A stretch of DNA of 61,704 nt, counting the filler. It is 7 parts of 7 records of this genome, joined end to end, with 100 filler letters (N's around TTAATTAATTAA, not from the genome) between each part and the next. Parts side by side here need not be neighbours in the genome. Positions count along the whole stretch, not along the records: positions 38,376 to 53,170 come from SRR31156797_20489; 6 more parts are not named here. One strand, 5' to 3'. Below the pieces are notes generated by a model that saw nothing but the letters and a program-made list of their open reading frames with translations, had not been told where the DNA came from and ran no database searches. Numbering within the stretch: position 1 is the stretch's first letter; every line of letters begins with the position of its first letter. A program made the translations under genes and the position numbers. This document shows positions 38,376-53,170 of this stretch, piece after piece.

Positions 38376-38456
38376 ATGTTTCTTCATTCTTAATCTACCT
38401 CTTCCTCTTTGGTGGCTCTATGGATTGAGTCGCCCTTTTTTTGTCTCTAATACCTA

Positions 38457-38499
38457 TTGACTGTGAAAGGATATAGTAGTATCATAGAACATACATTCG
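38457..38499 (+). promoter_or_regulatory. SigA promoter with a Firmicutes LexA (Cheo) box
   Basis: TTGACT-N17-TATCAT followed at once by AGAACATACATTCG (GAAC-N4-GTTC with one mismatch). Confidence 0.7.
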
Positions 38500-38540
38500 A
38501 ATGTATCAAATGCAACTTCAAGAAGTAGAGGTAAATAGAT

Positions 38541-38759
38541 ATGAACACGGTTGGTTACAGAATTAAAAAGCATAGGATGGGTAATATGCTATCGAGAAGA
38601 GAGCTTGCAGAGAAAGTGGACATTACTCCGGAAGCAGTAAGGAACTATGAGGTAAACAAAAGGCTGCCCCGGATGGGCATCGCTATTAGGTTATCAGATG
38701 TATTGGGTGTAAGTTTAGATGATTTGTTCAGGGATGGTGCAGAGGATGAAGAAAAATGA
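38541..38759 (+). CDS. XRE-family HTH regulator
   Basis: LSRRELAEKVDITPEAVRNYEVNKRLP; GAGGT RBS. Confidence 0.9.
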   Translation: MNTVGYRIKKHRMGNMLSRRELAEKVDITPEAVRNYEVNKRLPRMGIAIRLSDVLGVSLDDLFRDGAEDEEK

Positions 38760-38871
38760 GGGTGAGAGAGAAAAAAGACAAAACATATTGATGAGCAATA
38801 TAAAATACATAATAATTGGTAATGAACGGATTAAAAGTGTGCTATGGAATAATAAAGAGAAGAATGAGTAG
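38746..38871 (+). CDS. Possible 41-aa ORF (MKKNEGERE...NKEKNE)
   Basis: Overlaps the 3' end of the XRE gene and ends at the terminator; weak RBS. Confidence 0.35.
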   Translation: MKKNEGEREKRQNILMSNIKYIIIGNERIKSVLWNNKEKNE

Positions 38872-38893
38872 GGGATTGTTATAATCCCCTTTA
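38870..38893. terminator. Hairpin terminator between the convergent XRE and higA genes
   Basis: AGGGGATT-GTTAT-AATCCCCT followed by a T-rich tract. Confidence 0.65.
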
Positions 38894-38915
38894 TTCTATG
38901 CAAAAGTATAGTTGT

Positions 38916-39965
38916 TTATATATAGTTGAATTGTTCATATCCGATTAATTCATCGTGTTGTAAAAAGCCGACAATAATACATGGTAGTATATTTTGTTTC
39001 TTAGCAAATCCCGTTATGCTTTGTTTTGTAAAAACTTTCTTTGAAGTAAATTCTGCGTAATCATCAAGATTTACAAGTAAACTACGTGCAAAATCATTCG
39101 CTTCTTTTTCTTTTGGTTTAGATTCTTTAGTTTCTTCTTCCATTGAGATTATTGGTTCTTTTGAATCATAATGAAGAAACAGATGTGCTATTTCGTGCAT
39201 GAAGGCAAACCACCGATGTGAGTGACTTTTAAAACGTCCACTTAGGTATATTGTGGGAAGCCCTTTATAAGTGGTGAGTGCACCTCTAACTTTACTATTT
39301 GTTATAGCTTCACAAATGACTAAGTAAATACCTAGTTTATTACATAATCTACGGCAACTATTTAGTGATAGTTCAGTTTCGTGATTGGTAGATAAAAGCT
39401 TGAATTTATCAAAATTCTTTTTTAATTCAGATTTATTATAAGTTTTCTCACCTAATTCTTTGTTTTGAATTTCTATTTCAGTTTCACACAAATTCATCCA
39501 TATTGCAATTGCTTCTTTTTCGCCGCCATCTTCCATGAAGTCTGCGTTTATATTTGCATAAGCAGCTTCAAACTGACTAAACTTACTTATTTTTAGTAAC
39601 TTCAACATTTCTATTGCTTGTTCTACTAGGCTCAAACCTAAACCTTCAAAAACTTCTTTAAATCTAAATCTATTTGCTGTAGCTTTTAAATTGATATTAT
39701 TTAAATCGCCCTTTTCTTTCTCCCTTGCTAAGTATTCCCTATATTTACTTTCATAATTTATCCAATACGAAGCCTCAATACCTGTTAATACTTTTTCAAG
39801 TTTTAATGCAAATTCTACAGTTAAAACGCTTTTATCGTTAAGCACATTAGATATATGTTTTTCTGTCATTCCAGTTCTCTTAGCTAATTCTTTTTGACTA
39901 ATTTTATACTCATCAAGATATTCTTTTATTAAATTTCCTGTTGGTGAAATATATATGTTTTTCAT
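38916..39965 (-). CDS. higA: HigA antitoxin HTH fused to an ImmA/IrrE (M78) metallopeptidase
   Basis: PTGNLIKEYL...SQKELAKRTG...ALKLEKVL...YWINY; FMHEIAH (HExxH) and EKEANDFA. Confidence 0.9.
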   Translation of the reverse strand: MKNIYISPTGNLIKEYLDEYKISQKELAKRTGMTEKHISNVLNDKSVLTVEFALKLEKVLTGIEASYWINYESKYREYLAREKEKGDLNNINLKATANRFRFKEVFEGLGLSLVEQAIEMLKLLKISKFSQFEAAYANINADFMEDGGEKEAIAIWMNLCETEIEIQNKELGEKTYNKSELKKNFDKFKLLSTNHETELSLNSCRRLCNKLGIYLVICEAITNSKVRGALTTYKGLPTIYLSGRFKSHSHRWFAFMHEIAHLFLHYDSKEPIISMEEETKESKPKEKEANDFARSLLVNLDDYAEFTSKKVFTKQSITGFAKKQNILPCIIVGFLQHDELIGYEQFNYI

Positions 39966-39981
39966 ATCTTCACAGCCTTTC

Positions 39982-40296
39982 TTAATGGTAGTCTTCTAAG
40001 TTGATTATTCTTATATCAGTTATAGTTGTTAAGTCGTTAATATTGAAATCGCCAATTGGCTCAATGATAAATCGATGATTTCTTGAGTAATCAACACCCC
40101 AATGATCTTTTAAATCACCTTCTAACTTGTGTCTTCTTGGGGGCGGAATATGAGGTATTTTTTTTAAATTGTCCACATTTTTTAATTCTGAATGCCTATT
40201 AAGTATATTTTTCCAATGTTTAGTATAGTGCTTTTTAATTAGTCTTGGGTCTGATAGTATTTTCTCCAATTTAGTTGATGAGTATTTTATATTCAT
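39982..40296 (-). CDS. higB: HigB/RelE-family toxin
   Basis: MNIKYSSTKLEK...RHKLEGDLKDHWGVD...RFIIEP...IINLEDYH; upstream of higA; start reassigned to 40296. Confidence 0.88.
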   Translation of the reverse strand: MNIKYSSTKLEKILSDPRLIKKHYTKHWKNILNRHSELKNVDNLKKIPHIPPPRRHKLEGDLKDHWGVDYSRNHRFIIEPIGDFNINDLTTITDIRIINLEDYH

Positions 40297-40311
40297 GAAG
40301 CTCCCCCCGTC

Positions 40312-40387
40312 GTTACATATTTTAACATAATTAACCTCATAGGTCAATTTTATATTTGTTTATATATTGTAACATTTTTGTTATAAT
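40312..40387. promoter_or_regulatory. Divergent promoters of higBA and the sce7726-like gene
   Basis: Minus strand: TTGACC(40347-40342)-N17-TAAAAT overlapped by GTTA-N7-TAAC. Plus strand: extended -10 TGTTATAAT inside the palindrome ATTGTAACA-N4-TGTTATAAT (40366-40387). Confidence 0.6.
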
Positions 40388-40414
40388 ATAAATTGAAAGA
40401 TAGGTAGGTACGAG

Positions 40415-41224
40415 ATGAATAATATAAACGACAAAGAGCCAACATTGAGTGATGTGCAAAGGCTAAATGCGGTTTACTCAACAATTGAATTAAAAAAGAA
40501 TTTATATAACAACTTGAATGAAACACTTGATTCAAGATATCTTGATGCCTTATCAGAGTATAATGTTCATCAAATCTATAATCATGTCATATTAAAATAT
40601 TATCCCAATGAAGTAAGCGTAAAATCAACTTTTATCAACCAAGTACTACTAAAAGGGAAGTCACATATTAGTATATTCGAGTTACCTATAGTAAATAGTC
40701 GTGCAGATTTGTGCAAAATAAATGGTGAAAGTGTAGTATATGAGATTAAAACTGATTTAGATAATTTTACCAGGTTATCAAAACAAATCAACGATTACAA
40801 GAAGGTATTTGATAAAGTATATGTTATATGCTCAACAAATAGATTAGAACAAATGAAGAATCACATATCAAAAGATATTGGTATATATACTTATAGAATT
40901 ACTAAAAGTAGTCGCTATATATATAAGCTAGAGAGAAAAGCGCTAAAGAATGATAATTTGGATAACGAAGAGCAATTAAAGGTACTATGGAAAAAAGAAT
41001 TACGTGCCCTAGTAAATAACAGTATTGAATCAAAAGAAGAAATGATTGAATTTTTATTGAATACAATGGATAGAAACCAAATTAACAGCATATTTAAAGA
41101 ACAATTAAAGAAACGTTATCAGAAGAAGTGGGATTTCTTTAAGGAAAATCATGAACAATTACTTGAAATCGATTATCAATGGTTTTATAAAAATACATTC
41201 AATCCGGAATTCATATATCATTGA
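40415..41224 (+). CDS. sce7726-family PD-(D/E)xK nuclease-like protein
   Basis: FELPIVNSRADLCKING...VYEIKTDLDNFTRLSKQINDYKKVFDKVYVI. Confidence 0.82.
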   Translation: MNNINDKEPTLSDVQRLNAVYSTIELKKNLYNNLNETLDSRYLDALSEYNVHQIYNHVILKYYPNEVSVKSTFINQVLLKGKSHISIFELPIVNSRADLCKINGESVVYEIKTDLDNFTRLSKQINDYKKVFDKVYVICSTNRLEQMKNHISKDIGIYTYRITKSSRYIYKLERKALKNDNLDNEEQLKVLWKKELRALVNNSIESKEEMIEFLLNTMDRNQINSIFKEQLKKRYQKKWDFFKENHEQLLEIDYQWFYKNTFNPEFIYH

Positions 41225-42315
41225 TTTAAGTATTTGAATATTTGATGTATATATCGTCTAATACAAATATTTTTCCAAGTAGCCCAACTTCCATATTTAG
41301 GTATAGAGTCTATTTCTTTGTACCCTATACAATCGTTATTGATATCTAAAGTCTCTCTCATATCAAGCACTTTGGGCAATACATATTTGTAGCCCAGTAT
41401 GCCCATTTTTCTATTTTTATGAGTACATACCCAGAAATGGTTCTCGCTATAATCATAAAGTAGTGCAATTGCTGCACCTTCAGAAGGTTCTTTAATTGAA
41501 GGCAATTTATCTCTTATTCCACAGTAATCACCGAAACCGTTAAAAGTGTAATCCTCTATTATTAATCTTGCAGAAGTATCGATTAAATCAGTATACCCTG
41601 CCTCAGGATATTTGTTGTTATATATTTTAACTCGTACCGGAGAATTGAGCAGTATTTTGCATGCTTTTATATCCATATCTTCCAATTCAGACAATTCAGT
41701 AAATTTTGTATCAGGTTTCTGTTCCTGAATATCAAATAATAAAAAATCATTGTCCCTTAAATTGCTTTTTAATATTGTTTCATACTTATCTAAAAATTCT
41801 TCAGTAATTCTTAAAGCAATTTTGGTGTTTTTATTTTGCAAATCAGTAATAAAGGACTTTAACTCGCTCATAGCTAGCTCAAAACCTTTTTTTATTGAAA
41901 TAACCGGTATGAAATTTTGATATTTTGATACTTCATTCAATCTCTTCATGTATAAATCAAGATTATTATTTAGGTTGAATGATAACGCAACTTTATTAAC
42001 ATCTATATCTTTACCATATTTATCAATGGTAAACCTAAAAAAGTCTATAAATGCAAGTTTACTGTCCACTCTTTCGTTTATGCAGTCTAGTGTAACAATA
42101 TCATCTTCTGTGGGGTCTTCTTTTTCTCTTATTCTACGTTTACCGCATTGCTTATAAACATAATCACCAGTTTTTGGATTGATTTTAAAATCTAAATCAT
42201 ACTCATCATTTAATATTTCAATCAGGGGTATAATTGTATCTGAAAAACAATAATTAAGTGCTTTTGCAACTCTCATTTCTTCTTGCCTAGTTTTTAACAT
42301 TGGTACATATATCAT
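41218..42315 (-). CDS. Beta-family (P4 beta / sce7725-like) protein
   Basis: N-terminal MIYVPMLKTRQEE, IIPLIEI, IPVISI, IALRI, GFGDYCG, C-terminal GSWATWKNICIRRYI; start at 42315 after GGAGGT. Confidence 0.78.
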   Translation of the reverse strand: MIYVPMLKTRQEEMRVAKALNYCFSDTIIPLIEILNDEYDLDFKINPKTGDYVYKQCGKRRIREKEDPTEDDIVTLDCINERVDSKLAFIDFFRFTIDKYGKDIDVNKVALSFNLNNNLDLYMKRLNEVSKYQNFIPVISIKKGFELAMSELKSFITDLQNKNTKIALRITEEFLDKYETILKSNLRDNDFLLFDIQEQKPDTKFTELSELEDMDIKACKILLNSPVRVKIYNNKYPEAGYTDLIDTSARLIIEDYTFNGFGDYCGIRDKLPSIKEPSEGAAIALLYDYSENHFWVCTHKNRKMGILGYKYVLPKVLDMRETLDINNDCIGYKEIDSIPKYGSWATWKNICIRRYIHQIFKYLNQ

Positions 42316-42353
42316 CTCTCCCACCTCCATATTTCTTCTTTTGTATTTATATC

Positions 42354-43058
42354 CTAGTACACATTATAGTATTTAGGGTCTAACTCATAAAAATCCCATT
42401 GACCGTGGGTTTCATTGTAACCCACATATTTCTCCTTCATTTCAGCTAATGTCATAAGGTTATCAACACCTGAGTAAACATAAACTATAAATGTCTCTTG
42501 ACCAGTTTTATTACCATTATAAACGTATCTTAAAGTAAATATATAAGGTCTACCAGATTCATCCTCATTAGTTGTAAATCTATACTCATAGTTTGGATCT
42601 TTATCATTCCACCAATCTTCATAATGAAAAACCAGAATTTTTTTAGTAATTGAGTTTTTATTTAACCAAAATGTATTTGCTATTGTATAAGTTCTATCTA
42701 AGTCCTCTAAACTTATTTCTTCCAGCTCTCCTGTAAGACTAAAAATGACTTCCTCTTCTTCGGTATCTGGTAAAATCTTGCCAGTTGCATTATCCTTTAT
42801 AGCTTTTTGTATATGAAGTTTGACCTCAGTTATTTCTTCGTCTTTAAAACTTAGGCAATCCCAGTTTAGAGGGAAAATAATATGATCAGATGGCCAATTC
42901 TTAAATTCTCTAACAAATACTACCATTCTTGGTTCATAAACATTTACTCCAAAGCGTGGAGCAACATATGCTATTGTTACTGATACTATAATTGTAACTA
43001 TTGTTAGTATACATGCAATAAGACCTATTTTTATATCTCGCTTCTCATATATTGACAT
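42354..43058 (-). CDS. Hypothetical protein with an N-terminal membrane anchor
   Basis: Single hydrophobic helix at about aa 11-33, then a soluble domain. Confidence 0.7.
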   Translation of the reverse strand: MSIYEKRDIKIGLIACILTIVTIIVSVTIAYVAPRFGVNVYEPRMVVFVREFKNWPSDHIIFPLNWDCLSFKDEEITEVKLHIQKAIKDNATGKILPDTEEEEVIFSLTGELEEISLEDLDRTYTIANTFWLNKNSITKKILVFHYEDWWNDKDPNYEYRFTTNEDESGRPYIFTLRYVYNGNKTGQETFIVYVYSGVDNLMTLAEMKEKYVGYNETHGQWDFYELDPKYYNVY

Positions 43059-43388
43059 TTTAGTCTTGCTCTTCGGATTACTCCTTATGCTCTTTATATA
43101 GTTTACGAGTTTATAATATTCATTCTTAATAGTTTCACCTCTATATTTCCTATTTTGTATTAATATCCCACCTATATTTCAAAAAAAAATATTATGCCTA
43201 TATTGCTTATTATTTAATTTATATCCCCGCATCTATTACAGCATCTTTTAGTCTTTGAAAATTTTTAGAGTTACTATTCTTCGTTCTAGAATACCCTGAC
43301 AATGATTTCGGGGCAAAATCAGGTAACTTCCTTATTATCTGTTTATACTCTTTTTCAGCATTTTCCATCCCTATATGTTCCTGTACTG

Positions 43389-44280
43389 TTAACGTACTAT
43401 CTCAACAAATAATTCAGTCATATTGCTGTAGATATGTTTCCCTATTTCAATTATATATTCACCATCACCTGAGTACTCAACAATAAAGTAAGTGTCGTAT
43501 ACCGCACCAGAACGAATGTCTATTAGCCAATCGTTTGGATAATCATCATCAAGGTACATGCTGCGGTCTTCGTACTTGATACCGTCTTGTGAGAATACGT
43601 TGATATGAGTGCCCATCCATAAGTTTTGTGTTTTGTCACTGTTATTTTCTATAGTCACAGAAAAACTATTATACTATCTGACTAAACCCAATAATTATCA
43701 CAAGTAGCTACCTCGTAGCCTGTAAAAGTAACAAGAAGGCCATCTACATCAACAGGATAATTCAAAGAGGGCTTAGGGGTAGAAGTAGGCTCTGGTGTTG
43801 ACGTATTTGTGGGCGTAGGTTTAGGTGAGTTGGTTTGAGTAGGTGTAACTTCTTCTTGAATATGCACACCTTCCAATGTTGGGGTTGACTCTATAGTGGT
43901 TTTTTCACACCTGTATAACGAACAACAACAAATATTATTACCACTATAAGACCTGAAAAAATGTAGATACCAATTGGGGGTATATTTGTTAGTTGTTCGT
44001 CAGGATTTAAAACAGAGTCATTCACATTTTCTGAGCCTTGTAAATCTATTCTCTCTTTTTTTGTAATTGCTTCACGCTTCACGTTTTTCGTTGAAAGAAC
44101 TATGTTCAGTGCCATTTAGTTTATGGAAGTTCGCAATATTTTTTGCTCCAAGCATCATAAGTACGAAGCCAGTAAGAAGTATGATTAAAAATATGGCTCC
44201 TATTTAAAAAGCATAATAAAAGAACCTATTATTAAAAGTAGACCAATGTTAGTTTATACTGTTCCATTTTTTACATATTT
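43389..44280 (-). pseudogene. Fragmented membrane-anchored surface protein (TM, P/T linker, DUF4352-like domain)
   Basis: Collinear fragments in different frames; frameshifts at the A6 run (43900-43905) and the T5 run (about 43661-43665), plus in-frame TAG at 43682-43684; upstream limit approximate. Confidence 0.65.
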
Positions 44281-44447
44281 ATTTTTCAATTTACTACATC
44301 TTAATTATTTTTATGTTTAATTACCACTAACTAACTACTGTAATTATTACCAATCAATTTTCCTTGTTCCTAAACTGCCTATCATTTATCCTGTTTTATA
44401 TTTACTGTAGGTCTAAATCCATTTTGCTTCGTTTTTACGCATTGATA

Positions 44448-45911
44448 TTAATCCATAATGCTATCTATTAATAGTCTGCTGTCTTCGAACATCTGAGAAT
44501 AAGTGTATATTGTTTCAAACGCTTTTATTTCTTTTTGAGTTAATTCATAATCCAGCTTGGAGCCATCATCATTAAAAAATCTCATATATGGATTCTCTGC
44601 ATTGAGCACTTTTTCGTAATCGTCATCAAGTAAGTTGAGTTCACATCTTTCAGTTATTCCGTAATCTACTGTTCTGACTACATCATCATAGCTAAAAGAA
44701 TCGTATATGTACTCACTGTCGTTTACATATAACTTAACATTTTCCATAAAGAACCAAGAACTTCTTTTGAAGCCAATCTCAACACTCATGCCCAAGTCGA
44801 AGAATGGTATAAAGTGATTACTGTAGGATATTTCACTTAGCCCTTTAGCGAACAATGTATTATCTTCTTCTGTGAAATTGCTATATCCATACTCCAAATA
44901 TGTGTTTATGTACTCACTCATAACCGTTAGATTCTCTGTTATTACATCCCAATCGTTATTGGGAAGATATTCTTCTAGATACCACCTATTATCAACGACA
45001 AAGCTAATGGCATCTTCAATTTGAATTTGATTGGAGTAAAAAAGTATTCTGATTTCATTATAAGCCCTGAAGCATAACGCATTGTTAAATGCAGTGATAT
45101 TGGTGATGTTGTTTGAACTGATGAACAAATCCATGTCTTCAAAAACTGAATCTATGCCCTCTGATTTAATTAAATCCTCATACTCTTTAGACAAGAGGAA
45201 GTCGCTAAGCCTAACTTCAATATCTGCTTTTGCATTGATAAAACTATATTTGTCAAAGTAGGTGATTATTGTATTAGAATACTTTTCTTTATTATATCGT
45301 GATATTTCGTCGAAATCAGTTTCTAGTTTGCTAATAATCATATTTTCGAACTCTTCAAGTGCAAATTCTTTTAGAAATTCTTCATATTCTTCAAATTCGC
45401 TAAGTTCATCTTCCGCTATATTCCAAAATGATTGTGTGAATAGTGTGAGTTCACCGAAGTTAGTATTTAGTTCGTCTAAAAACTCTTGTTTTAGGCCTTC
45501 TTGCCTCTCTAATTCGATTTCTAATTCGATTTCTTGTCTAGCAGTTTCTCTTGACGCTGAATTATCGTTTACTTCCCCGGTAAGTGACTCGATATAATCA
45601 CCTACTATATAATTGAATGTCGAATCTATATCTTCAAAGTAAGATATAATTGAACTATCTGGTATTTGTATGTCGTCATTGTATGTCTTATACTCAGCGT
45701 CTATATGGCTTATCAGAATATTACGTAATTCCTCTTGCTGCTCTGTTGCAAATGCCTTTTCGTAGTTGTTTTCTAAAATTAGCTCATTTGCAGCATCATA
45801 TTCATATTTAGATAAGTGTGTTGTAATCTCGTTGTATGTTTCTTCGCTTATAGAGCAAGCGGAAAAAACTAGTACGATAGTTAAAAGTAAAATAACATGA
45901 ATTTTTTTCAT
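44448..45911 (-). CDS. Large acidic lipoprotein of unknown function
   Basis: MKKIHVILLLTIVLVFSA-C lipobox; very D/E-rich; start reassigned to 45911. Confidence 0.8.
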   Translation of the reverse strand: MKKIHVILLLTIVLVFSACSISEETYNEITTHLSKYEYDAANELILENNYEKAFATEQQEELRNILISHIDAEYKTYNDDIQIPDSSIISYFEDIDSTFNYIVGDYIESLTGEVNDNSASRETARQEIELEIELERQEGLKQEFLDELNTNFGELTLFTQSFWNIAEDELSEFEEYEEFLKEFALEEFENMIISKLETDFDEISRYNKEKYSNTIITYFDKYSFINAKADIEVRLSDFLLSKEYEDLIKSEGIDSVFEDMDLFISSNNITNITAFNNALCFRAYNEIRILFYSNQIQIEDAISFVVDNRWYLEEYLPNNDWDVITENLTVMSEYINTYLEYGYSNFTEEDNTLFAKGLSEISYSNHFIPFFDLGMSVEIGFKRSSWFFMENVKLYVNDSEYIYDSFSYDDVVRTVDYGITERCELNLLDDDYEKVLNAENPYMRFFNDDGSKLDYELTQKEIKAFETIYTYSQMFEDSRLLIDSIMD

Positions 45912-46123
45912 AATCATCTCTCCATTTTTGTTATTTATATTAATCACATATGCTAGATGTGTAATTTTTACTAATCAATTTTCCTTGTTTCTAAACTCCC
46001 CGTTTTTGCACCTAAACTAGCGGTAATTACCATGTATTTACATTGACATATATTACCTTGGGTTTTATTATACAATTTAATGAAATATTCACATATTAAA
46101 AAATATATATTAAATATATCTAC

Positions 46124-46166
46124 TTGACTACACAACACATAGAGCGTAGTATAGAACATACGTTCT
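46124..46166 (+). promoter_or_regulatory. SigA promoter with a perfect Firmicutes LexA box, pointing into the 3' end of cI
   Basis: TTGACT-N17-TAGTAT then AGAACATACGTTCT (46153-46166). Confidence 0.8.
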
Positions 46167-46196
46167 TTTAATAGAAAAATATAAGGGAGTACGAAT

Positions 46197-46343
46197 ATGA
46201 AGATGAAGAGAGAAGAAGGTACAATTACAATCAATAAATATCGCAACTGCACAAAACAACACAAAACAACTATTCGCCTCTTTCTAGCATTTTATTTATG
46301 GACTTTAAGAAAGCTTTCGCAATGCCCCTTTGGTCAGAACTAA
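46197..46343 (+). CDS. 48-aa SOS-controlled microprotein, candidate antirepressor (absent from the ORF track)
   Basis: AAGGGAG RBS; MKMKREEGTITINKYRNCTKQHKTTIRLFLAFYLWTLRKLSQCPFGQN; overlaps the cI 3' end antisense. Confidence 0.6.
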   Translation: MKMKREEGTITINKYRNCTKQHKTTIRLFLAFYLWTLRKLSQCPFGQN

Positions 46344-46611
46344 GCTCATTATACATTCTAAGAAACTCCTGCTCATCAGGTGTTAAATCACTCTCGTTTG
46401 AGGGTGATTTTTTATTGTCCGAAAGTCCTAAGAGGAAATCTGTGGAGCACTCAAACAAAGACGCTAACTTTTCTAATGTTAATGCATCTGGAATACTCAC
46501 ACCTCGTTCATACGAACTATATGTTTGGCGCTTAACCTTTAAGTAGTCGGCTACATCTTGTTGGCTATAAGGTGTGTTTTTTCGAGCTTTTTTTAAATTT
46601 TCACTTAGCAT
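46270..46611 (-). CDS. CI-like prophage repressor (XRE HTH plus short helical C-terminal domain, no S24 peptidase)
   Basis: SQQDVADYLKVKRQTYSSYERG...STDFLLG; divergent from cro; start is 46611 or 46629. Confidence 0.9.
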   Translation of the reverse strand: MLSENLKKARKNTPYSQQDVADYLKVKRQTYSSYERGVSIPDALTLEKLASLFECSTDFLLGLSDNKKSPSNESDLTPDEQEFLRMYNELSSDQRGIAKAFLKSINKMLERGE

Positions 46612-46635
46612 ATTATTCTCACAATACATTTATTG

Positions 46636-46763
46636 TAGCAAATAATAATTGCTAATACAATATATGAAATAATAAATTGCAATAAAGCAAATATACATTG
46701 CAATTAGTGTTGACAAAGCAATTATAATTTGCTATTATATGAATATAGCAATTTTAAATTGCG
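46636..46763. promoter_or_regulatory. Phage switch operator array (five GCAA-N7-TTGC sites) and lytic promoter
   Basis: Sites at 46636-46654, 46665-46681 (degenerate), 46686-46702, 46717-46734 and 46746-46763; TTGACA(46710)-N17-TATTAT(46733). Confidence 0.85.
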
Positions 46764-46770
46764 GAAAGGA

Positions 46771-46980
46771 GTGATTGTTCTGAGAAACTGGTTAGTGGAG
46801 CAACGTAAGAAATGTGGTCTCTCGCAATCTGAAGTTGCGAAAAAGGTGGGAGTGACTAGGCAGATGGTAAGCGCAATAGAGCGTGGTGAAAATCCGTCAG
46901 TGGACACAGCAAAGAAACTCGGTAAAGCACTTGATGTTGACTGGACAAGATTCTACGATGAAGAGAGAAAAGGGGCGTGA
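46771..46980 (+). CDS. Cro-like XRE regulator
   Basis: LSQSEVAKKVGVTRQMVSAIERGENPSV; start uncertain (GTG 46771 or CTG 46780 after AAGGAG). Confidence 0.88.
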   Translation: MIVLRNWLVEQRKKCGLSQSEVAKKVGVTRQMVSAIERGENPSVDTAKKLGKALDVDWTRFYDEERKGA

Positions 46981-46983
46981 TGG

Positions 46984-47106
46984 ATGCCATATTACAGCGA
47001 AGATGAACAAGAAGCCTTAAACCTATACAGAGAGTTAAAGCATAGAGAGACTGTAATAGCTAAATTGCTTTGCGTGATACTAAACCGAATATTAGAAAGG
47101 AATTAA
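46984..47106 (+). CDS. 40-aa microprotein homologous to the CI C-terminal domain (absent from the ORF track)
   Basis: AAGGGG RBS; MPYYSEDEQEALNLYRELKHRETVIAKLLCVILNRILERN; 15/36 ungapped identities with the CI C-terminus. Confidence 0.78.
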   Translation: MPYYSEDEQEALNLYRELKHRETVIAKLLCVILNRILERN

Positions 47107-47108
47107 TT

Positions 47109-47270
47109 ATGCCAAATGTTGAAGATTTAAAAGTGAATATATCCATGAAAAATTCCAGGAAATTTGAGAGGAAATGCAAGCAAGTTATTTCAGCGGTAAG
47201 CGAACTACAAGAGTGCATTAGTAGTTCTCCAGATGTGAAAAAATTGCTTGCATCATTCTTAGAATTCTAG
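47109..47270 (+). CDS. Small phage hypothetical protein
   Basis: GAAAGGA RBS, then MPNVEDLKV... Confidence 0.55.
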   Translation: MPNVEDLKVNISMKNSRKFERKCKQVISAVSELQECISSSPDVKKLLASFLEF

Positions 47271-47560
47271 TTTTTTTGTGCGTATAAGGTGCCTGCAGTG
47301 CTAAGCATATCTCCCCATGAATCGAACGAAGTCACACTACTAATGTACTCGTCAAAATCTTCATCGGGTATAGCTTTAAAATCTTCCTGTGATTTCACTG
47401 TCCACTTACTGTTATTAAGCAGGTCGTAAAATGAAGAGAACTTTGAGTGCTTTTGCATGAAAGACTTTGTGAAGAGTTCCGAAAACTCAAACTCACCTGA
47501 TAAGCTTTGAATTCTATCGTTGAGTTCTTTTAATACAGAGTCATCAAATTCGAAAGACAT
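47267..47560 (-). CDS. Phage hypothetical protein on the antisense strand of the early lytic operon
   Basis: AAAGGGG RBS; MSFEFDD...ELFTKSFMQKHSKFSSF...FDSWGDML. Confidence 0.7.
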   Translation of the reverse strand: MSFEFDDSVLKELNDRIQSLSGEFEFSELFTKSFMQKHSKFSSFYDLLNNSKWTVKSQEDFKAIPDEDFDEYISSVTSFDSWGDMLSTAGTLYAQKN

Positions 47561-47635
47561 AAATTTCCCCCTTTCTATATTACTTGCCATAAATAGTAAC
47601 ATATATGGAAAATAACGACAAGAAAGGAGAAACAC

Positions 47636-48391
47636 TTGGAACAATTAACCAAGACATTATCTAGCCTAGAAGTGGCTGAAATGGTAGGAAAGCAGCACAA
47701 GGAATTGTTGAGAGACATAAGAACTTATATTTCTCACCTTAACGAGAGCAAAGATGCGCTGGTTGTAGGAGAGCGCAAAATTGCGCTTACCGATTTTTTT
47801 ATTGAAAGTTGCTACAAAACTTTACAAAACAAAAAACTACCATGTTACCTGTTAACCAAAAAAGGTTGTGAACTCGTAGCTAATAAACTAACAGGTGAAA
47901 AGGGAACTAGATTTACTGCAACATATGTTAATAAGTTTAACGAGATGGAACAGCAGAATATTTCAGTAGAACAGTTACTGCAAGACCCTGACACAATCAT
48001 CAGGTTGGCGACTAACTGGAAAGAAGAGAAAACCAAAAGGTTGATGCTGGAAGAAAAGATAGAGCAGGACAAGCCGTATACAGAATTCGGTATCGCTATT
48101 GGTAATGCAAGTGAAGCAGTAAAGATTGGTACATTTGCTAAATCACTCGCTAATGCAGGCATTGACACAGGACAAAATCGACTTTTTAAATGGCTAAGGG
48201 TGAACGGTTACTTAGAAAGCAATAACGAGCCTTACCAAAGGTATGTATCAATGGGATTGTTCAAAATAAAAGTTAATAAAGTGAAACCAGCATATGGCGA
48301 TCCTTTCTTTACTTATACAACATTAATTACAGGTAAAGGACAAAAGTATTTCTATGAAAAGCTGAAAGTAAAAAAGCAGAAAGGAGCATAA
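47636..48391 (+). CDS. Phage antirepressor, Rha N-terminal domain plus ANT/KilAC C-terminal domain
   Basis: LSSLEVAEMVGKQHKELLRDI, YLLTKKGCELVANKLTGEKG; TGQNRLFKWLR...ITGKGQKYF; TTG start after AAAGGAG. Confidence 0.92.
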   Translation: MEQLTKTLSSLEVAEMVGKQHKELLRDIRTYISHLNESKDALVVGERKIALTDFFIESCYKTLQNKKLPCYLLTKKGCELVANKLTGEKGTRFTATYVNKFNEMEQQNISVEQLLQDPDTIIRLATNWKEEKTKRLMLEEKIEQDKPYTEFGIAIGNASEAVKIGTFAKSLANAGIDTGQNRLFKWLRVNGYLESNNEPYQRYVSMGLFKIKVNKVKPAYGDPFFTYTTLITGKGQKYFYEKLKVKKQKGA

Positions 48392-48393
48392 CA

Positions 48394-48624
48394 GTGAAAT
48401 TATCAGTACCAGAAACAGCAAAGATACTTGAATGCTCACCAGACCATGTAAGGCAGAGCATGAAGCAGGGCAATTTGAATATTGGCTCATGGGCGCAGCA
48501 CTCAGGGAGATGCTCATACAATATTCAGTCTGGCGCATTGGCAAGACACATGAATGTGGCAGAGCAGGTAATCATAACAATAGTTTTGAAGATGAGAGAT
48601 GAAAAAAATCTAGAGGTCGCATAA
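48394..48624 (+). CDS. Small excisionase-like HTH protein
   Basis: LSVPETAKILECSPDHVRQSMKQG..IG. Confidence 0.65.
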   Translation: MKLSVPETAKILECSPDHVRQSMKQGNLNIGSWAQHSGRCSYNIQSGALARHMNVAEQVIITIVLKMRDEKNLEVA

Positions 48625-48739
48625 GCAACCTCAAAACAGAAACGAAAAGTGAGAGGGGAGTGATAGGGCAAAAAGTGAGAGTGAATGAGGAATTCAATAG
48701 GCTATACCAATATATTAGCAGAAAGGAGGAAGTGAAAAC

Positions 48740-49306
48740 ATGACACAAACAGCCCTAAATACACCAGTAAGCGGACAATGTATTACAGGTTCTGTGTACA
48801 AGCGAAAAATACATGCTGTAGGTAAGACGATTACTCAGTTTGTTGATGAACTTAATAACAGAAGCTTACCATACTGTGAGCGCAATGTACGAAAAAAGCT
48901 AAGTGACAATGAGCCGGGGGAGCCATCACCAGAAATGGTAGCAATAATGGTTGAAGAACTGGGATTTGATTACGAATTAGCTTATATGTATCTGAGAGAT
49001 AATCCTGTGGCTAAGTTAATATTACCGGAGAAGGTAAGTAAAAAGCCCTTAGCCCAAGTGGCTATAACGCTGATGGTAGTTTCGGATATGATGCAGAGTA
49101 AAAGCAAGATGCTGCTAGAGATAGCTACAGATGGGGTAATCTCGCCAGATGAGGAAGAACAATTTGATGAGTACATGGAAACCATGGATAAAATGATGGC
49201 ATCGTGCCTTGAATTGTTATTTATAGATGGTGTGAAGTACAAAATGAAAAAGAACGGATTACAGATGCCCGGTCACCAAACTAAGCACTGTAATTCCATT
49301 CCTTAA
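48740..49306 (+). CDS. Phage regulatory (CII-like) protein
   Basis: HTH-like N-terminus and LLEIATDGVISPDEEEQF motif; strong RBS. Confidence 0.6.
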   Translation: MTQTALNTPVSGQCITGSVYKRKIHAVGKTITQFVDELNNRSLPYCERNVRKKLSDNEPGEPSPEMVAIMVEELGFDYELAYMYLRDNPVAKLILPEKVSKKPLAQVAITLMVVSDMMQSKSKMLLEIATDGVISPDEEEQFDEYMETMDKMMASCLELLFIDGVKYKMKKNGLQMPGHQTKHCNSIP

Positions 49307-49344
49307 AGACAACCAAATTATATCACGAAAGGGGATATAGCACA

Positions 49345-49518
49345 ATGCCAAAAGAAAAACACTGGAACGGATGCTTTAATTCTAAGGAAAGCAAACATGT
49401 ACCTAAGCATACAAAGACAAGATGTCGCTTTTGTGGTGAATATGGATATGTAGTATGCCCTGAATGTGTGAAAGAAATAAATGCTTCAATTGGAAATTCG
49501 AAGGAAGTGGCTGTATGA
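49345..49518 (+). CDS. 57-aa zinc-ribbon phage protein (absent from the ORF track)
   Basis: AAAGGGG RBS; CRFC...CPEC; ATGA overlap with the next gene. Confidence 0.65.
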   Translation: MPKEKHWNGCFNSKESKHVPKHTKTRCRFCGEYGYVVCPECVKEINASIGNSKEVAV

Positions 49519-49751
49519 GCAAAATTTCAGTTTTCCCCAAATATATCTGGACAGTTGATAACAATTGGACTACTCACCATGAAGTAAAGGAAGTCAAAAT
49601 TGACGAGGACGGCAAGAGAATATTTATATGTAAGTTTGCTGGTAAGGACAGTTTGCTGTTTCCAATTTACGAATCTGTGCAAAAGGTATTCTTTACTGAG
49701 GAGGAAGCAGAAGTGAGGATAAACCCCAATGAAAGGAGTGGGTTCAGGTGA
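49515..49751 (+). CDS. Phage hypothetical protein
   Basis: Start reassigned to MSKIS by ATGA coupling. Confidence 0.6.
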   Translation: MSKISVFPKYIWTVDNNWTTHHEVKEVKIDEDGKRIFICKFAGKDSLLFPIYESVQKVFFTEEEAEVRINPNERSGFR

Positions 49752-49855
49752 GTAATTATACATGCCCTTATTGTGGCTCAAATTACGATACAGTCACAGA
49801 AGTTCATAACTGTGATTGCCAAGAGGATAAAGAAAGTGAGGAAGATGATGAGTGA
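49748..49855 (+). CDS. 35-aa Cys-rich phage protein (absent from the ORF track)
   Basis: GTGA overlap, AAAGGAG RBS; CPYCG...CDC with an acidic tail. Confidence 0.55.
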   Translation: MSNYTCPYCGSNYDTVTEVHNCDCQEDKESEEDDE

Positions 49856-50078
49856 CTTTGACAATTGGCTATATATGCAAGCTGATAAACAATATGATGA
49901 ATCAAACCAAGAACCAGAACTTATCTGCGACGAATGCGGTGAACCAATATATGAATATGACTTGTACTTAGACCTGCCTAACGGCATGAGAGTACACGTA
50001 GATTGTATTAATCCAGAGCATGTGGACGAAGAGTACCTGGCTGAAGATGTGCTGGAAGAGTGTAGGAGGATAGCATGA
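49845..50078 (+). CDS. Phage zinc-finger-like protein
   Basis: ICDECGEPIYE...HVDC; start reassigned to MMSDF. Confidence 0.65.
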   Translation: MMSDFDNWLYMQADKQYDESNQEPELICDECGEPIYEYDLYLDLPNGMRVHVDCINPEHVDEEYLAEDVLEECRRIA

Positions 50079-50905
50079 GTGAAGCTACTATTGATAGCAA
50101 GGAAATGATTATCGTTGAACAGCTGCCAATAATAACTGAAAAGCTGATAAACGTAAGCTTATTAATTGAGGAGAGAGTAAACCATGCTCTTTCCCTCGAT
50201 GTAACGGAAACAACACTGTCAGAAGTGAAGAAAGTACGAGCAGGGTTAAATAAAGACAAAGCCGACTTAGAGAACAGGAGAAAAGACGTAAAAAAGGCGG
50301 TTATGGACCCGTACAGTCAGTTTGAAACAGTATACAAAGACTTGGTTCTGAATAAATTCACTAAAGCAGACACAGAACTCAAATCCAAGATTAGTAATGT
50401 AGAAAACGGTATAAAGAGAAAAAAGCGTGAAAAAGTTGAACAGTATTTCAATGAATATGCTCAAAGTAAGGATATTAATTTTATCAGCTTTACTGATGCT
50501 AAGTGTAATGTAACGCTGTCAGCTTCCGTTAAATCGCTTAAAGAAGGCTGTAAAGACTTCATTGACAGTATATCTGCAGGACTGGAACTGATTGAAACTC
50601 AGGATCACAAAGATGAAATACTTGTTGAGTTTAAGAAAAATCTAAATGCTGCTGTAGCCATTACGACTGTAGTCAATAGATATAAAGCTATTGGAGAAGA
50701 GAAAGCACGCAGGGAAGCAGCTAAGGCTCAAAAGGAACAAAAGAAAGAAGCTGTAAAGAAAGTAGAAGCTATACAAGCAGAGACAGTGCCGGTAGTAGAT
50801 GATTCACAGGAAATTGTGATACTAAATTTAAGGGTCAAAGCAACCAAGGAAAAACTTAGGGCATTAAAGACATTTTTATTACAAGGAGGATATGAAATTG
50901 AGTAA
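50075..50905 (+). CDS. DUF1351-family phage protein
   Basis: EQLPIITEKL...VKKVRAGLNK...ENRRKDVKKAVMDPY; usual position upstream of the recombinase. Confidence 0.8.
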   Translation: MSEATIDSKEMIIVEQLPIITEKLINVSLLIEERVNHALSLDVTETTLSEVKKVRAGLNKDKADLENRRKDVKKAVMDPYSQFETVYKDLVLNKFTKADTELKSKISNVENGIKRKKREKVEQYFNEYAQSKDINFISFTDAKCNVTLSASVKSLKEGCKDFIDSISAGLELIETQDHKDEILVEFKKNLNAAVAITTVVNRYKAIGEEKARREAAKAQKEQKKEAVKKVEAIQAETVPVVDDSQEIVILNLRVKATKEKLRALKTFLLQGGYEIE

Positions 50906-51584
50906 TGAAGTAGCTGTTGTTTACAGTATAGGTGATTCAGAAATTAAGCTAACACCGAGTATAGTACAAAATTACATAGTAGGCTCAAATGCAGAAATAA
51001 GCATGCCTGAGTTTAAGATGTTTACCGAGCTATGTAAGGTTAGAAAATTAAATCCATTTCTGAAAGAAGCATACTGCATCAAATACGGCAATGAACCAGC
51101 ACAGGTAGTAGTTGGTAAAGATGTTTTCGTCAAGAGGGCTGTATTGCATCCAGATTACGATGGTAAGGAGTCAGGGCTAATTGTAAAGAACGATAAGGGC
51201 AAGATAGAAGAGCGACAAGGGTGCTTCTATTTAGATGATGAAGAGATAGTAGGTGCATGGGCTAGAGTGTTCAGAAAGAGCTGGGAGCATCCTGAATATG
51301 TAAGTGTTGCCTTTGATGAGGTTGCAAAGCGTAAGAAAAGCGGTGAACTAAACAGTAACTGGCTAAGACAGGGGGCAACTATGGTTGTAAAAGTTGCAAC
51401 AGTTAGAGCACTTAGAGAATCTTTTGTTGATGATTTAGGCGGTATGTATGTCGAGGAAGAGTTTACACAGGTTGATAATTCCATAGTAGATATTACTCCT
51501 TCACAAGACCCTGTATTCACTGAACCAATACCACCTCAGAACGACTTCACAGACAACGATCAGGTAACTCTAGATGATTTATGA
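50892..51584 (+). CDS. bet: Phage recombination protein Bet (RecT/Red-beta family)
   Basis: LCKVRKLNPFLKEAYCIKYG...VGAWARVFRK...W....ATMVVKVATVRALRESF...GMY. Confidence 0.9.
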   Translation: MKLSNEVAVVYSIGDSEIKLTPSIVQNYIVGSNAEISMPEFKMFTELCKVRKLNPFLKEAYCIKYGNEPAQVVVGKDVFVKRAVLHPDYDGKESGLIVKNDKGKIEERQGCFYLDDEEIVGAWARVFRKSWEHPEYVSVAFDEVAKRKKSGELNSNWLRQGATMVVKVATVRALRESFVDDLGGMYVEEEFTQVDNSIVDITPSQDPVFTEPIPPQNDFTDNDQVTLDDL

Positions 51585-52215
51585 TGTCATAGCTTCATCC
51601 AGTTATGGTAATGCTACGGTCATCGAGAATACAGTTCTAATAGACTGTGGTATGCCGTACAAAGCTATATCAAAATATGTGGACAGGCTAAAAATAGTTT
51701 TGCTTACCCATAGTCATAAAGATCATTTTAATAAGAAAACAATAGCTAGGCTATCAAGACAAAGACCTATGCTGAGATTTGGCTGCGGTAAATGGCTTGT
51801 ACTTCATTTGCTGGATTGCGGAGTATCAAAAGCCAATATTGATGTCTATGATATGGATGTTTGCTATAACTATAAATCATTAAAAATCATTGCATTTAAG
51901 TTATTTCATAACGTTCCAAACTGTGGATATAAGCTGATGATTAACCATCAAAAGGCTATCTACGCAACAGACACTAACAGGATAGAAACCACAGCTAAGA
52001 ACTATGATTTGTACTTAATTGAAGCTAACTATGGCGATAAGGAAATCCAGCAGAGAATAAGAAATAAACGCTTTCAGCCATATATATATGAGCTTGGTGT
52101 GCTGAAAAACCACTTGTCAGAATCAAAGGCATTTGACTTTATTATGAGTAATGCAGGTCCAAATAGTAGGTACAGGCTTATGCATCAGCATGCAGAGAGA
52201 AAGAAGGCGAATTAA
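51574..52215 (+). CDS. MBL-fold metallo-hydrolase, putative phage exonuclease partner
   Basis: ASSSYGN, LIDCG, THSHKDH, YATDT, IEANY, NHLS. Confidence 0.88.
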   Translation: MIYDVIASSSYGNATVIENTVLIDCGMPYKAISKYVDRLKIVLLTHSHKDHFNKKTIARLSRQRPMLRFGCGKWLVLHLLDCGVSKANIDVYDMDVCYNYKSLKIIAFKLFHNVPNCGYKLMINHQKAIYATDTNRIETTAKNYDLYLIEANYGDKEIQQRIRNKRFQPYIYELGVLKNHLSESKAFDFIMSNAGPNSRYRLMHQHAERKKAN

Positions 52216-52490
52216 TGAAGTCGATTATACAAGATGATAAAGCCTGCTATATAACAGGCTCTACAGACAACTTACATGAACATCATATTTTTGGTGGCAG
52301 TAATCGTAAATGGAGTGAAAAATTCGGTTTGAAGGTATGGCTTAGAGCAGACTGGCACAATATGTCTGACTATGGAGTACATTTCAATAAAAATTTTGAC
52401 AGACAACTTAAGAAAACAGGGCAGATGTTTTTTGAAAAAACATATTCACATGAAGAATTTATGCAGTATTTCAGGAGGAACTATCTATGA
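52215..52490 (+). CDS. Small HNH-like phage protein
   Basis: CYITG...HEHHIFGGSNRKWSEKFGLKVWL...H...GVH. Confidence 0.7.
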   Translation: MKSIIQDDKACYITGSTDNLHEHHIFGGSNRKWSEKFGLKVWLRADWHNMSDYGVHFNKNFDRQLKKTGQMFFEKTYSHEEFMQYFRRNYL

Positions 52491-52861
52491 CACAAGCATC
52501 AAGTGAGTTTAAAGAAGTTAAGAAACTAGAGGGCAGTCCTTTTCAGATAGCGTGTGAAGAAGATTGCAAGATATATTCAAGAATGCTTGATGTATATATG
52601 GGACTGCAAGGTGATACTGTAAATGCTGCACAGGCGAATAATATCGCAAATACAGCTCTTGTACTTGCTTCCAGATGGTCAGATATTTGTTCTTACTCGA
52701 AAAGCATAAGCCTGAGATTTGGGTTTGGAAAGTCTGATTTTAGTATGTGGGCACATGAACGCTATTCCGTGCTAAAGGATATCCATATACATGCCAGAAT
52801 GATATGGAGTAAAGCGGAGGACGAATACAGGGAAACCATGAAATATGGCGGACAGACTTAG
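52487..52861 (+). CDS. Phage hypothetical protein
   Basis: ATGA-coupled ORF in the early operon. Confidence 0.65.
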   Translation: MTQASSEFKEVKKLEGSPFQIACEEDCKIYSRMLDVYMGLQGDTVNAAQANNIANTALVLASRWSDICSYSKSISLRFGFGKSDFSMWAHERYSVLKDIHIHARMIWSKAEDEYRETMKYGGQT

Positions 52862-52867
52862 AGAGGT

Positions 52868-53170
52868 ATGGATATGAATAACAACAACTACTATACAATC
52901 CAAGGCTGGATGAGGAATATGCTCCAATTAAAGGGGAATGAGTTAATGCTTTTTGCATTGATATATGGATTTTCACAAGATGGAGAAACGGTATTCAATG
53001 GAAGCTTAACATATATGGAAAAAGCAATAGGAGCAACAAGACCTACTGTTGTTAAGACACTAAACGCATTAGTAGAGAAAGGACTGATTACACGAATCAG
53101 CAGTAAAAAAGGTAATAAATACTTTACTAGTAAAGAAACTAAACTAGTTAAAAATCTTTCAGAAACTAGT
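52868..53170 (+). CDS. Phage replication initiator (N-terminal wHTH), 3'-truncated
   Basis: NYYTIQGWM...LKGNELMLFALIYGFSQDGE..FNGSL.Y. Confidence 0.8.

Follow-up and report, generated by a model that had tools for sequence, protein, structure and literature searches.

A candidate LexA-controlled, AimX-like unit facing the gene of a short phage repressor outside arbitrium

Introduction

Short repressors that do not cleave themselves are common in Gram-positive phages; how DNA damage induces such phages is mostly unexplained, and the only worked-out case of the layout considered here is the arbitrium system of Bacillus phages. Can the same layout operate where no arbitrium genes are present? 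The question is raised by a locus at positions 46124-46343 of a 61,704-nucleotide (nt) stretch of DNA (the window, that is, the whole stretch analysed), within contig SRR31156797_20489 (window 38376-53170, 14,795 bp, 33.9% GC). There, a promoter with a LexA box precedes an open reading frame (ORF) of 48 amino acids (aa), ORF48, which runs into the 3′ end of cI, the gene of a short XRE-type repressor. The original prediction described this arrangement as a LexA-box promoter firing into cI and driving a second microprotein that resembles the CI tail. The sequence anatomy, the build and homology of CI and the recurrence of the layout are matters of observation. On these grounds we propose, with about even confidence, that the locus could be an SOS-derepressed, AimX-like antirepressor unit that works without arbitrium.

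LexA-controlled antirepressors of Gram-negative phages include Tum of 186 and Fels-2, AntC of N15 and those of Gifsy. The earlier comparison covered enterobacterial systems only, and AimX of phi106 and Sar of SPbeta/phi3T are closer, Gram-positive precedents. According to the part of the phi106 report used here (10.1101/2021.09.20.460909), aimX is damage-inducible, its induction is lost with a non-cleavable LexA [lexA(ind-)], mutating two bases of the LexA site makes its expression constitutive, and 81 of 81 clade-1 systems retain a LexA site between aimR and the antisense repressor. Kabel et al. (10.1101/2025.11.23.689978), in the sections drawn on here, describe AimC as a protein of 80-140 aa with a helix-turn-helix (HTH) domain, a linker and a helical C-terminal domain, and without a cleavage domain. 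In phi106, the activity resides in an ORF of 29 aa that lies immediately past the LexA site and shares 30 bp with aimC; recoding the overlap had no effect, while a start-to-stop mutation abolished the response to mitomycin C and peptide. AimX binds AimC, so that oligomerisation is blocked and AimC comes off the DNA, a mechanism that the authors liken to SinI/SinR. AimX candidates have 29-80 aa, some overlap aimC and they are highly divergent. In both phi106 and phiW23, the same sections report the antisense route to be inconsequential, based on recoded overlaps, start-to-stop mutants and expression in trans. Similarly, the portion consulted of a report on SPbeta-like phages presents Sar/SroF as a small antirepressor derepressed by the SOS response via LexA (10.1101/2025.11.27.690993). 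LexA-controlled micro-antirepressors of Gram-positive phages, and the convergent overlapping layout, are therefore already known. The design discussed here belongs to a known kind, as a version of aimX/aimC without arbitrium and with LexA alone.

Results

A LexA-boxed promoter and a small ORF converge on the 3′ end of cI

The candidate unit and the gene that it faces comprise the following elements:

46124-46152, plus strand: P2, candidate sigma-A promoter (-35 TTGACT at 46124-46129, 17-nt spacer, -10 TAGTAT at 46147-46152)
46153-46166, either strand: LexA (Cheo) box AGAACATACGTTCT, a 14-bp palindrome with the core GAAC-N4-GTTC at 46154-46165
46183-46189, plus strand: Shine-Dalgarno (SD)-like AAGGGAG, 7 nt before the ATG, read from the sequence
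46197-46343, plus strand: ORF48, 48 aa, ATG at 46197, candidate AimX-like antirepressor
46385-46418, plus strand: intrinsic-terminator-like hairpin, 11-bp stem at 46385-46410 and then UUUUUUAUU
46270-46629, minus strand: cI, XRE-type repressor, 119 aa (113 from the second ATG), matching Pfam HTH_3 (9.7e-14) only
46219-46252, minus strand: hairpin just past the cI stop, a putative 3′ end or attenuator of the cI transcript, inside codons 8-19 of ORF48
46637-46762, either strand: four operator-like palindromes AGCAA-N7-TTGC, at 46637, 46686, 46717 and 46747

The P2 hexamers, the box, the ribosome binding site, the ATG and the 48-aa ORF were thus all present as originally predicted. P2 agrees with the consensus at 9 of 12 hexamer positions, the -35 alone at 5 of 6. 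The box directly follows the -10, with its core one base further on, and the expected transcription start would therefore be covered by it; the perfect GAAC-N4-GTTC core ends 31 nt before the ATG of ORF48. In the part of the source used here, the LexA consensus of Firmicutes is given as CGAACRNRYGTTYC or GAACn4GTTC (PMC2248561). The sequence AGAACATACGTTCT fits 12 of the 14 positions of CGAACRNRYGTTYC and carries the complete core. All four exact AGCAA-N7-TTGC sites of the window lie in the intergenic region between cI and a divergent cro-like gene; these being the phage operators, the GAAC box is not a CI/Cro site. Judged from the DNA, the box is probably a working LexA operator on the rightward promoter.

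The N-terminal half of ORF48 is basic and hydrophilic and lies within intergenic DNA, and its 25 C-terminal codons are antisense to the final codons of cI (74-nt overlap). The terminator-like hairpin begins 42 nt past the ORF48 stop, within the linker-coding part of cI, and folds with -14.3 kcal/mol (z -4.34), a stability equalled in 0 of 200 shuffles. The hairpin on the other strand reaches -13.8 kcal/mol (z -4.91, again 0 of 200) and has a C/U-rich tail with no clean U run. The two convergent units consequently interdigitate, with a predicted RNA overlap of about 200 nt (46219-46418), and the structure of the complete predicted P2 transcript is not exceptional (z -0.41). It is the gene-like order of promoter, start-site operator, SD, ATG, ORF and terminator that first argues for a functional unit.

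A near-consensus promoter (TTGACA-17-TATTAT, 11/12) was also seen at 46043-46071 on the plus strand, 80 nt upstream of P2, from where it would read through the LexA box. We dropped it as evidence, as at least two such sites occurred in 88 of 400 simulations of the AT-rich contig.

CI is a short repressor of the AimC type

As had been predicted, CI is short and shows no Peptidase_S24 domain (no Pfam match at E<=0.01); its C-terminus is a two-helix hairpin instead. In the AlphaFold2 model, built on an 11-row alignment with a mean predicted local distance difference test of 84, the HTH is formed by five helices over residues 4-67. A linker of low confidence (72-78) leads from it to two helices at the C-terminus (84-94 and 98-117). 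CI and gp85 of Bacillus phage IEBH share 37% identity across 104 aa that take in the tail (pairwise E 6e-21). The gp85 gene lies beside and opposite an AimR gene (gp83, Pfam AimR 1.2e-43) and an AimP-like 50-aa ORF, and is called AimC on the basis of this position opposite aimR/aimP. Inspection by eye of the IEBH region (L079, 880-1180) revealed no GAAC-N4-GTTC box, which is consistent with the absence of a LexA site from many extended arbitrium systems, as stated in the part of the source referred to above (10.1101/2025.11.23.689978). On the minus strand of that region, a bidirectional terminator and very short ORFs (25 and 31 aa) were observed between the aimP-like ORF and the gene in the AimC position. 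Another relative, gp04 (cI) of Enterococcus phage phiFL4A, shares 38% identity over 89% of CI.

No gene for an M78 protease follows cI. The next gene is an ORF for a lipoprotein-like protein:

44448-45911, minus strand: lipoprotein-like gene, 499 aa, with a signal peptide ending in SAC and no Pfam or PHROG family

This gene is divergent from ORF48, downstream of cI and on the same strand as cI, and from its sequence is likely an accessory gene expressed in lysogeny. It is on the strand opposite to ORF48 and takes the place upstream where aimR and aimP would be expected, and neither was found there on the ORF48 strand; no AimR match was obtained among the 25 contig ORFs scanned against Pfam. 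The sole Peptidase_M78 match on the contig (38916-39965) is fused to an HTH and lies 6.3 kb from cI in a different gene cluster, without a box.

The contig carries a second, like-built unit

Another promoter with a box was identified near the left end of the contig, upstream of a small XRE gene:

38457-38499, plus strand: second promoter and box, TTGACT-N17-TATCAT-A-GAACATACATTC-G
38541-38759, plus strand: XRE gene, 72 aa, Pfam HTH_3 2.6e-13

The -35 hexamer and the spacing are identical to those of the P2 unit. When the two units were aligned, the matching bases clustered in the -35, the box and some of the -10, and the spacers were unlike, which fits a shared regulator rather than a duplication. 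The second box conforms to the GAACnnnnnTTC form applied to clostridia in PMC4234289. It also sits in the spacer of a promoter-like site on the minus strand (TTGATA-17-TATGAT, 38509-38481, 10/12). This leftward site points at a gene that begins at 38387 and continues past the contig end, and the 72-aa XRE gene is convergent on the HTH-M78 gene.

Joint occurrence was evaluated by Markov simulations of the contig. Under a loose definition (boxes with <=1 mismatch beside promoter-like sites), two boxes by such sites appeared in 19 of 500 simulations. A strict definition of the shared architecture, chosen post hoc after inspection of the data, returned one unit in 1 of 400 simulations and two units in none of 400. 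Promoter-like sites as such were about equally common in the contig and its shuffles (46 found, 37.3 expected). It is thus because of the second, like-built unit on one 14.8-kb contig that P2 with its box stands above chance.

The layout recurs in other phage loci

We then searched IMG/VR for the box pattern itself, so that the counts below express recurrence and not frequency. A scan for TTGAC-N18-TANNAT-AGAAC-N4-GTTC gave 14 loci, 8 of which, sharing one conserved sequence context, were set aside as coding coincidences; in 5 of these 8 (those with a flank long enough) this context fell inside an ORF of about 485-490 aa on the opposite strand. Among the remaining six, L053 (53% GC) shows the same design. 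Its promoter and box, TTGACG-N17-TAATAT-AGAACGCAAGTTCT, precede an SD and a basic small ORF, listed with 68 aa and 60 aa long if read from the ATG behind the SD. The last 108 nt of a convergent gene, for a 197-aa protein with an HTH only, are overlapped by this ORF; that gene is in turn divergent from another operon.

A looser scan (TANNAT-AGAAC-N4-GTTCT) found at least 117 stretches, and 80 loci with flanks were examined. In 33 of the 80, a near-consensus promoter on the opposite strand, TTGA(C/T)...AGAAC-N4-GTTC-TATAAT, contained the box within its spacer. Two conserved small ORFs occur behind these promoters:

35-41-aa ORF, SD-led, one clearly conserved family (23 of the 33 loci, 21 unique sequences): L081, L084, L100, L106, L107, L110, L117, L118, L121, L123, L129, L130, L135-L137, L139, L142, L144, L148, L150, L151, L158, L160
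60-aa ORF, a different conserved sequence starting MECINIRVNNG, behind TTGATT...AGAAC-N4-GTTC-TATAAT on contigs of about 50% GC (9 of the 33 loci): L089, L095, L098, L104, L114, L127, L146, L155, L156

Members of the 35-41-aa family have an N-terminal EEY..KIIELI motif and two predicted amphipathic stretches, and many are convergent on short XRE repressors. Neither Pfam nor PHROGs contains these micro-ORFs. According to the HTH profile, 16 of the 80 loci examined hold a convergent XRE gene of 102-148 aa that ends 98-568 nt downstream of the box; in six of the 16 (L117, L118, L121, L129, L142 and L144) the micro-ORF overlaps the end of the repressor gene by 4-10 nt. The L081/L150 repressor is homologous to CI over its full length, including the tail (31% identity over 90 aa, E 2e-13), and the tails of the L144 and L107 repressors align with the same motif. 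At none of the examined loci did an AimR-sized gene lie upstream. Their neighbours are divergent lipoprotein or lysis genes, the former at the position equivalent to that of 44448-45911 in L084, L107, L117 and L158. With best BLASTP E values of 0.036-0.38 across 13 distinct pairs, we rejected the proposal that these micro-ORFs are copies of the tails of their cognate repressors. Elsewhere on our contig, no member of the 35-41-aa family was found, the best of 372 contig frames reaching E 0.038.

Searching outward from CI recovered distant relatives only (2 viral, 23 genome and 15 metagenome loci). A box was present 385-830 nt away in 4 of these 40, and none of the 13 loci viewed closely had a convergent SD-led ORF with a box.

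The CI tail is copied by ORF40 and not by ORF48

The original prediction held that the core of ORF48 matches the register of the CI tail. This did not survive comparison: BLASTP produced no local alignment between ORF48 and CI at E<=100 and, with neither a CI alignment nor relatives among small proteins, ORF48 cannot be regarded as a second CI-tail-like microprotein. It has no family in Pfam or PHROGs, no usable match in the ESM Atlas and no resemblance to ORF40, the small ORF in which the tail does recur. A predicted CI:ORF48 complex scored 0.01 against a mark of 0.34 in a run of that pair alone, and is counted neither for nor against binding.

ORF40 belongs to the divergent, lytic side of the locus:

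46710-46738, plus strand: putative early lytic promoter, PR-like, TTGACA-17-TATTAT with a TG before the -10 (11/12)
46780-46980, plus strand: cro-like HTH gene in the aimL position, Pfam HTH_3 2.4e-17 (the frame opens at 46729)
46984-47106, plus strand: ORF40, 40 aa, copy of the two C-terminal helices of CI, directly after cro in the lytic operon

BLASTP aligned ORF40 with CI residues 85-118 (15/34 identical, 44%, E 7e-8), which covers exactly the two C-terminal helices of the CI model. No ORF40 homologues of 22-70 aa were found, nor did Pfam SinI match it at E<=0.1. On sequence grounds, ORF40 is a candidate SinI-like antirepressor.

Discussion

Proposed mechanism and its relation to known systems

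In the lysogen, host LexA bound to the Cheo box would keep P2 shut. DNA damage would lead to LexA cleavage, and P2 would then yield a transcript, about 260 nt long and terminated by the hairpin within cI, for translation into the 48-aa ORF48 protein. By analogy with AimX, ORF48 may bind the two-helix oligomerisation tail of CI, upon which CI would leave the four AGCAA-N7-TTGC operators and PR would open for cro and the lytic genes. The convergent transcript overlap of about 200 nt may add antisense or collision effects on cI, which are inconsequential in the relatives studied. LexA would be the sole input to an autonomous sigma-A promoter. With PR active, ORF40 could serve as a second, SinI-like inhibitor of CI. 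Provided that the operator works, we find it likely that the unit acts on CI and thereby promotes induction. If both hold, action through the peptide is somewhat favoured, because the peptide was decisive in both phages where peptide and RNA were compared; effects of the RNA alone are then given a smaller, still considerable chance.

A bolder version joins the two small proteins into a two-stage, protein-only switch without arbitrium or CI cleavage, in which ORF48, partly antisense-encoded, loosens CI and ORF40, made from the first PR transcripts, titrates the remaining CI, after which the decision could not be undone. It further takes the LexA box, micro-ORF and convergent short XRE gene for a common unannotated module of gut Firmicutes phages, of which aimX/aimC would be one elaborated branch. 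We regard this combination as improbable.

The closest known system is aimR-aimP-aimX/aimC/aimL. Both have a short non-cleavable repressor with HTH, linker and helical tail (CI 119 aa; AimC 80-140) and a divergent cro-like gene heading the early genes. As in phi106, a small ORF, here of 48 aa, is convergent on the 3′ end of the repressor gene with a LexA site just upstream, and CI is homologous to IEBH gp85 in the AimC position. In contrast, aimR and aimP are absent here and a divergent lipoprotein gene lies upstream. ORF48 has its own sigma-A-type promoter and no dependence on AimR, so LexA would be its only input. The overlap with the repressor gene is 74 nt instead of the 30 nt of phi106, the ORF48 sequence is unrelated to anything found, and ORF40 adds a copy of the CI tail after cro. 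Moreover, the arbitrium module comes from Bacillus phages, and the present phage need not be one.

Tum, AntC and the Gifsy antirepressors share the logic that a non-cleavable repressor is inactivated by a small LexA-repressed protein, but their LexA motif is of the CTG-N10-CAG type, their genes are positioned differently without overlapping the repressor gene, and no sequence relation was seen in the Pfam and PHROG searches with ORF48. Sar/SroF is likewise a small, SOS/LexA-derepressed antirepressor of Gram-positive phages; it mimics DNA and targets an integrase-fold repressor, however, and not an XRE HTH protein with a helical tail. SinR of Bacillus subtilis is an XRE-type repressor whose helical C-terminal domain serves oligomerisation, and the small protein SinI copies that domain and ties SinR up in an inactive heterocomplex (as cited in 10.1101/2025.11.23.689978). 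The likeness, ORF40 copying the CI helices, applies to ORF40 and not to ORF48, and here the setting is a phage with ORF40 in the lytic operon. ImmR of ICEBs1 and many Firmicutes prophages is a short XRE repressor of the sequence type of CI, also without S24 autocleavage, but cI has no adjacent M78 protease gene as in ImmR/ImmA. The lambda-type autocleaving CI differs by its S24 domain.

Weighing the evidence

A LexA-controlled antirepressor unit is favoured, beyond the order of its parts, by the second like-built unit, the Firmicutes-consensus box, the AimC-type CI, the phi106 precedent and the recurrence outside arbitrium phages. Several findings weigh against it. The box is as frequent as chance predicts (one perfect GAAC-N4-GTTC in the 61.7-kb window against 0.95 expected; at least one in 65 of 100 shuffles) and is therefore not significant by itself. 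P2 matches the consensus at just 9 of 12 positions, a LexA of matching specificity in the host is presumed, and the box, being a palindrome, is also compatible with a leftward promoter (-10 TATACT at 46152-46147, -35 2/6). The C-terminal half of ORF48 is fixed by the cI antisense. A word-indexed search of 5.8 billion clusters found no homologue of ORF48, and an exhaustive phmmer search of 1.84 billion representatives gave four matches and no small protein; all four have 444-1195 aa with 5-13 matched stretches, and are read as repeats or low complexity. ORF48 is also unlike the L053 small ORF, and scored -1.3 bits against a profile of the 21 unique family members, where 1451 of 2000 shuffles scored as high or higher. 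As an orphan, it therefore offers no conservation by which coding could be established. At none of the 40 distant-CI loci does a box occur in the 300 nt downstream of the repressor, and a search based on the contig's Ant protein (Rha/KilAC type) found a perfect box at 1 of 23 loci, in a divergent region; the layout is therefore not general for this repressor type. Finally, phiFL4A gp04, the closest full-length relative of CI among named phages, precedes the ImmA protease gp03. With relatives paired with arbitrium or ImmA, this type of repressor thus serves more than one induction device.

Accordingly, what had been predicted stands in part. The proposed SOS promoter firing into cI has a layout known from phi106 aimX/aimC and seen again in other phage contigs, without the mimicry attributed to ORF48; the box-ORF-cI arrangement has counterparts in L053 and in 16 of the 80 IMG/VR loci, and none within 300 nt at the 40 distant-CI loci.

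The same observations can be read in other ways. A real LexA promoter could act through its RNA only and lower cI expression after DNA damage. The transcript of about 260 nt would be antisense to roughly the final 150 nt of the cI message, or convergent transcription would collide with that of cI, and ORF48 would be fortuitous or irrelevant. The interdigitated hairpins, each inside the opposite unit across some 200 nt of predicted overlap, would suit this explanation, as would an ORF48 that is unconserved and half constrained by cI; antisense control was also the first proposal for aimX. It is nevertheless rather unlikely, as the antisense route was inconsequential in phi106 and phiW23, reduced synthesis of new CI would leave existing CI in place and make induction slow, the good SD and well-spaced ATG would be left unexplained, and the full transcript is not unusually structured by its z value. 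Alternatively, all the features could be chance products of AT-rich intergenic DNA, and induction, provided that the phage responds to SOS in the first place, could proceed via Ant (47636-48391), via ORF40, or via the HTH-M78 protein (38916-39965), which would cleave CI as ImmA does ImmR. The chance frequency of the box, the lack of enrichment of promoter-like sites and the orphan state of ORF48 are compatible with this view, and the contig does encode Ant (PHROG 63) and an M78 peptidase domain, while the 38%-identical CI of phiFL4A is paired with ImmA. We judge it unlikely: two like-built units on 14.8 kb arose in none of 400 simulations and a terminator hairpin stands 42 nt past ORF48. Furthermore, the M78 gene is 6.3 kb away in another cluster, fused to its own HTH and without a box, and ant, lying within the PR operon, cannot be the first trigger.

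A working LexA operator could, lastly, have a purpose other than CI, such as an ORF48 with a different target, control of the leftward lipoprotein gene, or read-through to cro and the lytic operon. In support, the box is palindromic and the minus-strand TATACT (46152-46147) is placed like the -10 of the IMG/VR promoters; the 38457 unit has a 10/12 minus-strand promoter with the box in its spacer; and Cheo boxes front a lipoprotein gene in L041 and the gene of an HExxH protein in L045 (roles read from the sequence). The leftward -35, however, matches at just 2 of 6 positions, whereas in the rightward unit a 5/6 -35 is combined with an SD, an ATG and a dedicated terminator, which also opposes read-through as the main purpose. 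Convergence on a non-cleavable repressor moreover recurs and is functional in phi106. This explanation appears quite unlikely to us.

Should the antirepressor unit be confirmed, a repressor/micro-antirepressor core would run on LexA alone, beyond the arbitrium phages, and SOS-inducible prophages could be predicted by a Cheo-box promoter that faces the 3′ end of a short XRE repressor gene. The related loci suggest that the layout is common in metagenomic, gut-type phages, with micro-ORFs absent from Pfam and PHROGs. The single contig is itself of limited value, with an orphan ORF48 and neighbouring contigs that do not reveal its host. Of greater interest are two by-products: ORF40, which copies the CI tail in the manner of SinI, and the LexA-boxed micro-ORFs of metagenomic phages, a family so far without annotation.

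Other features of the contig and the window

The window consists of separate contigs chained by six N...TTAATTAATTAA...N linkers (5723, 13165, 18408, 26811, 38320 and 53215). The contigs that flank the phage contig have a GC content of about 50-60% and encode sigma-54 activators, sugar kinases and ABC transporters, among which the phage contig may have been mis-binned. The joined contigs being of unlike GC, the neighbours are therefore uninformative on the host. By its gene content, the contig carries the lysogeny and early genes of a temperate phage, one of the low-GC Gram-positive type. Pfam and PHROG matches identify an HTH-M78 fusion, a 'Beta protein', the lipoprotein-like gene, cI, the divergent cro-like gene, a Rha/KilAC antirepressor, DUF1351, RecT and an MBL-fold protein. 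The last four, led by Ant, lie downstream of the cro-like gene on the same strand:

47636-48391: Rha/KilAC Ant protein, PHROG 63 (4.5e-56)

Relatives of RecT and CI in named phages come from Listeria, Clostridium, Lactococcus, Enterococcus and Bacillus phages. A blastn search of the phage database with the contig returned no close relative, and the region 45800-47400 had no Rfam match at E<=1. Of the sequencing runs listed for the locus, one DNA run contained 0.90 of its words and a second from that sample next to none; no RNA run was among them.

The cro-like gene has an SD, GGAAAGGAG (46763-46771), with no ATG, GTG or TTG at a workable distance; an in-frame CTG at 46780 is normally spaced, which suggests that this rare start codon is used. 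At the other end of the contig, the cluster at 38916-42330 comprises the HTH-Peptidase_M78 fusion, ORFs of 121 and 269 aa and the Pfam 'Beta protein' (PF14350), and its composition suggests an island of accessory or defence type more than an ImmA partner of cI.

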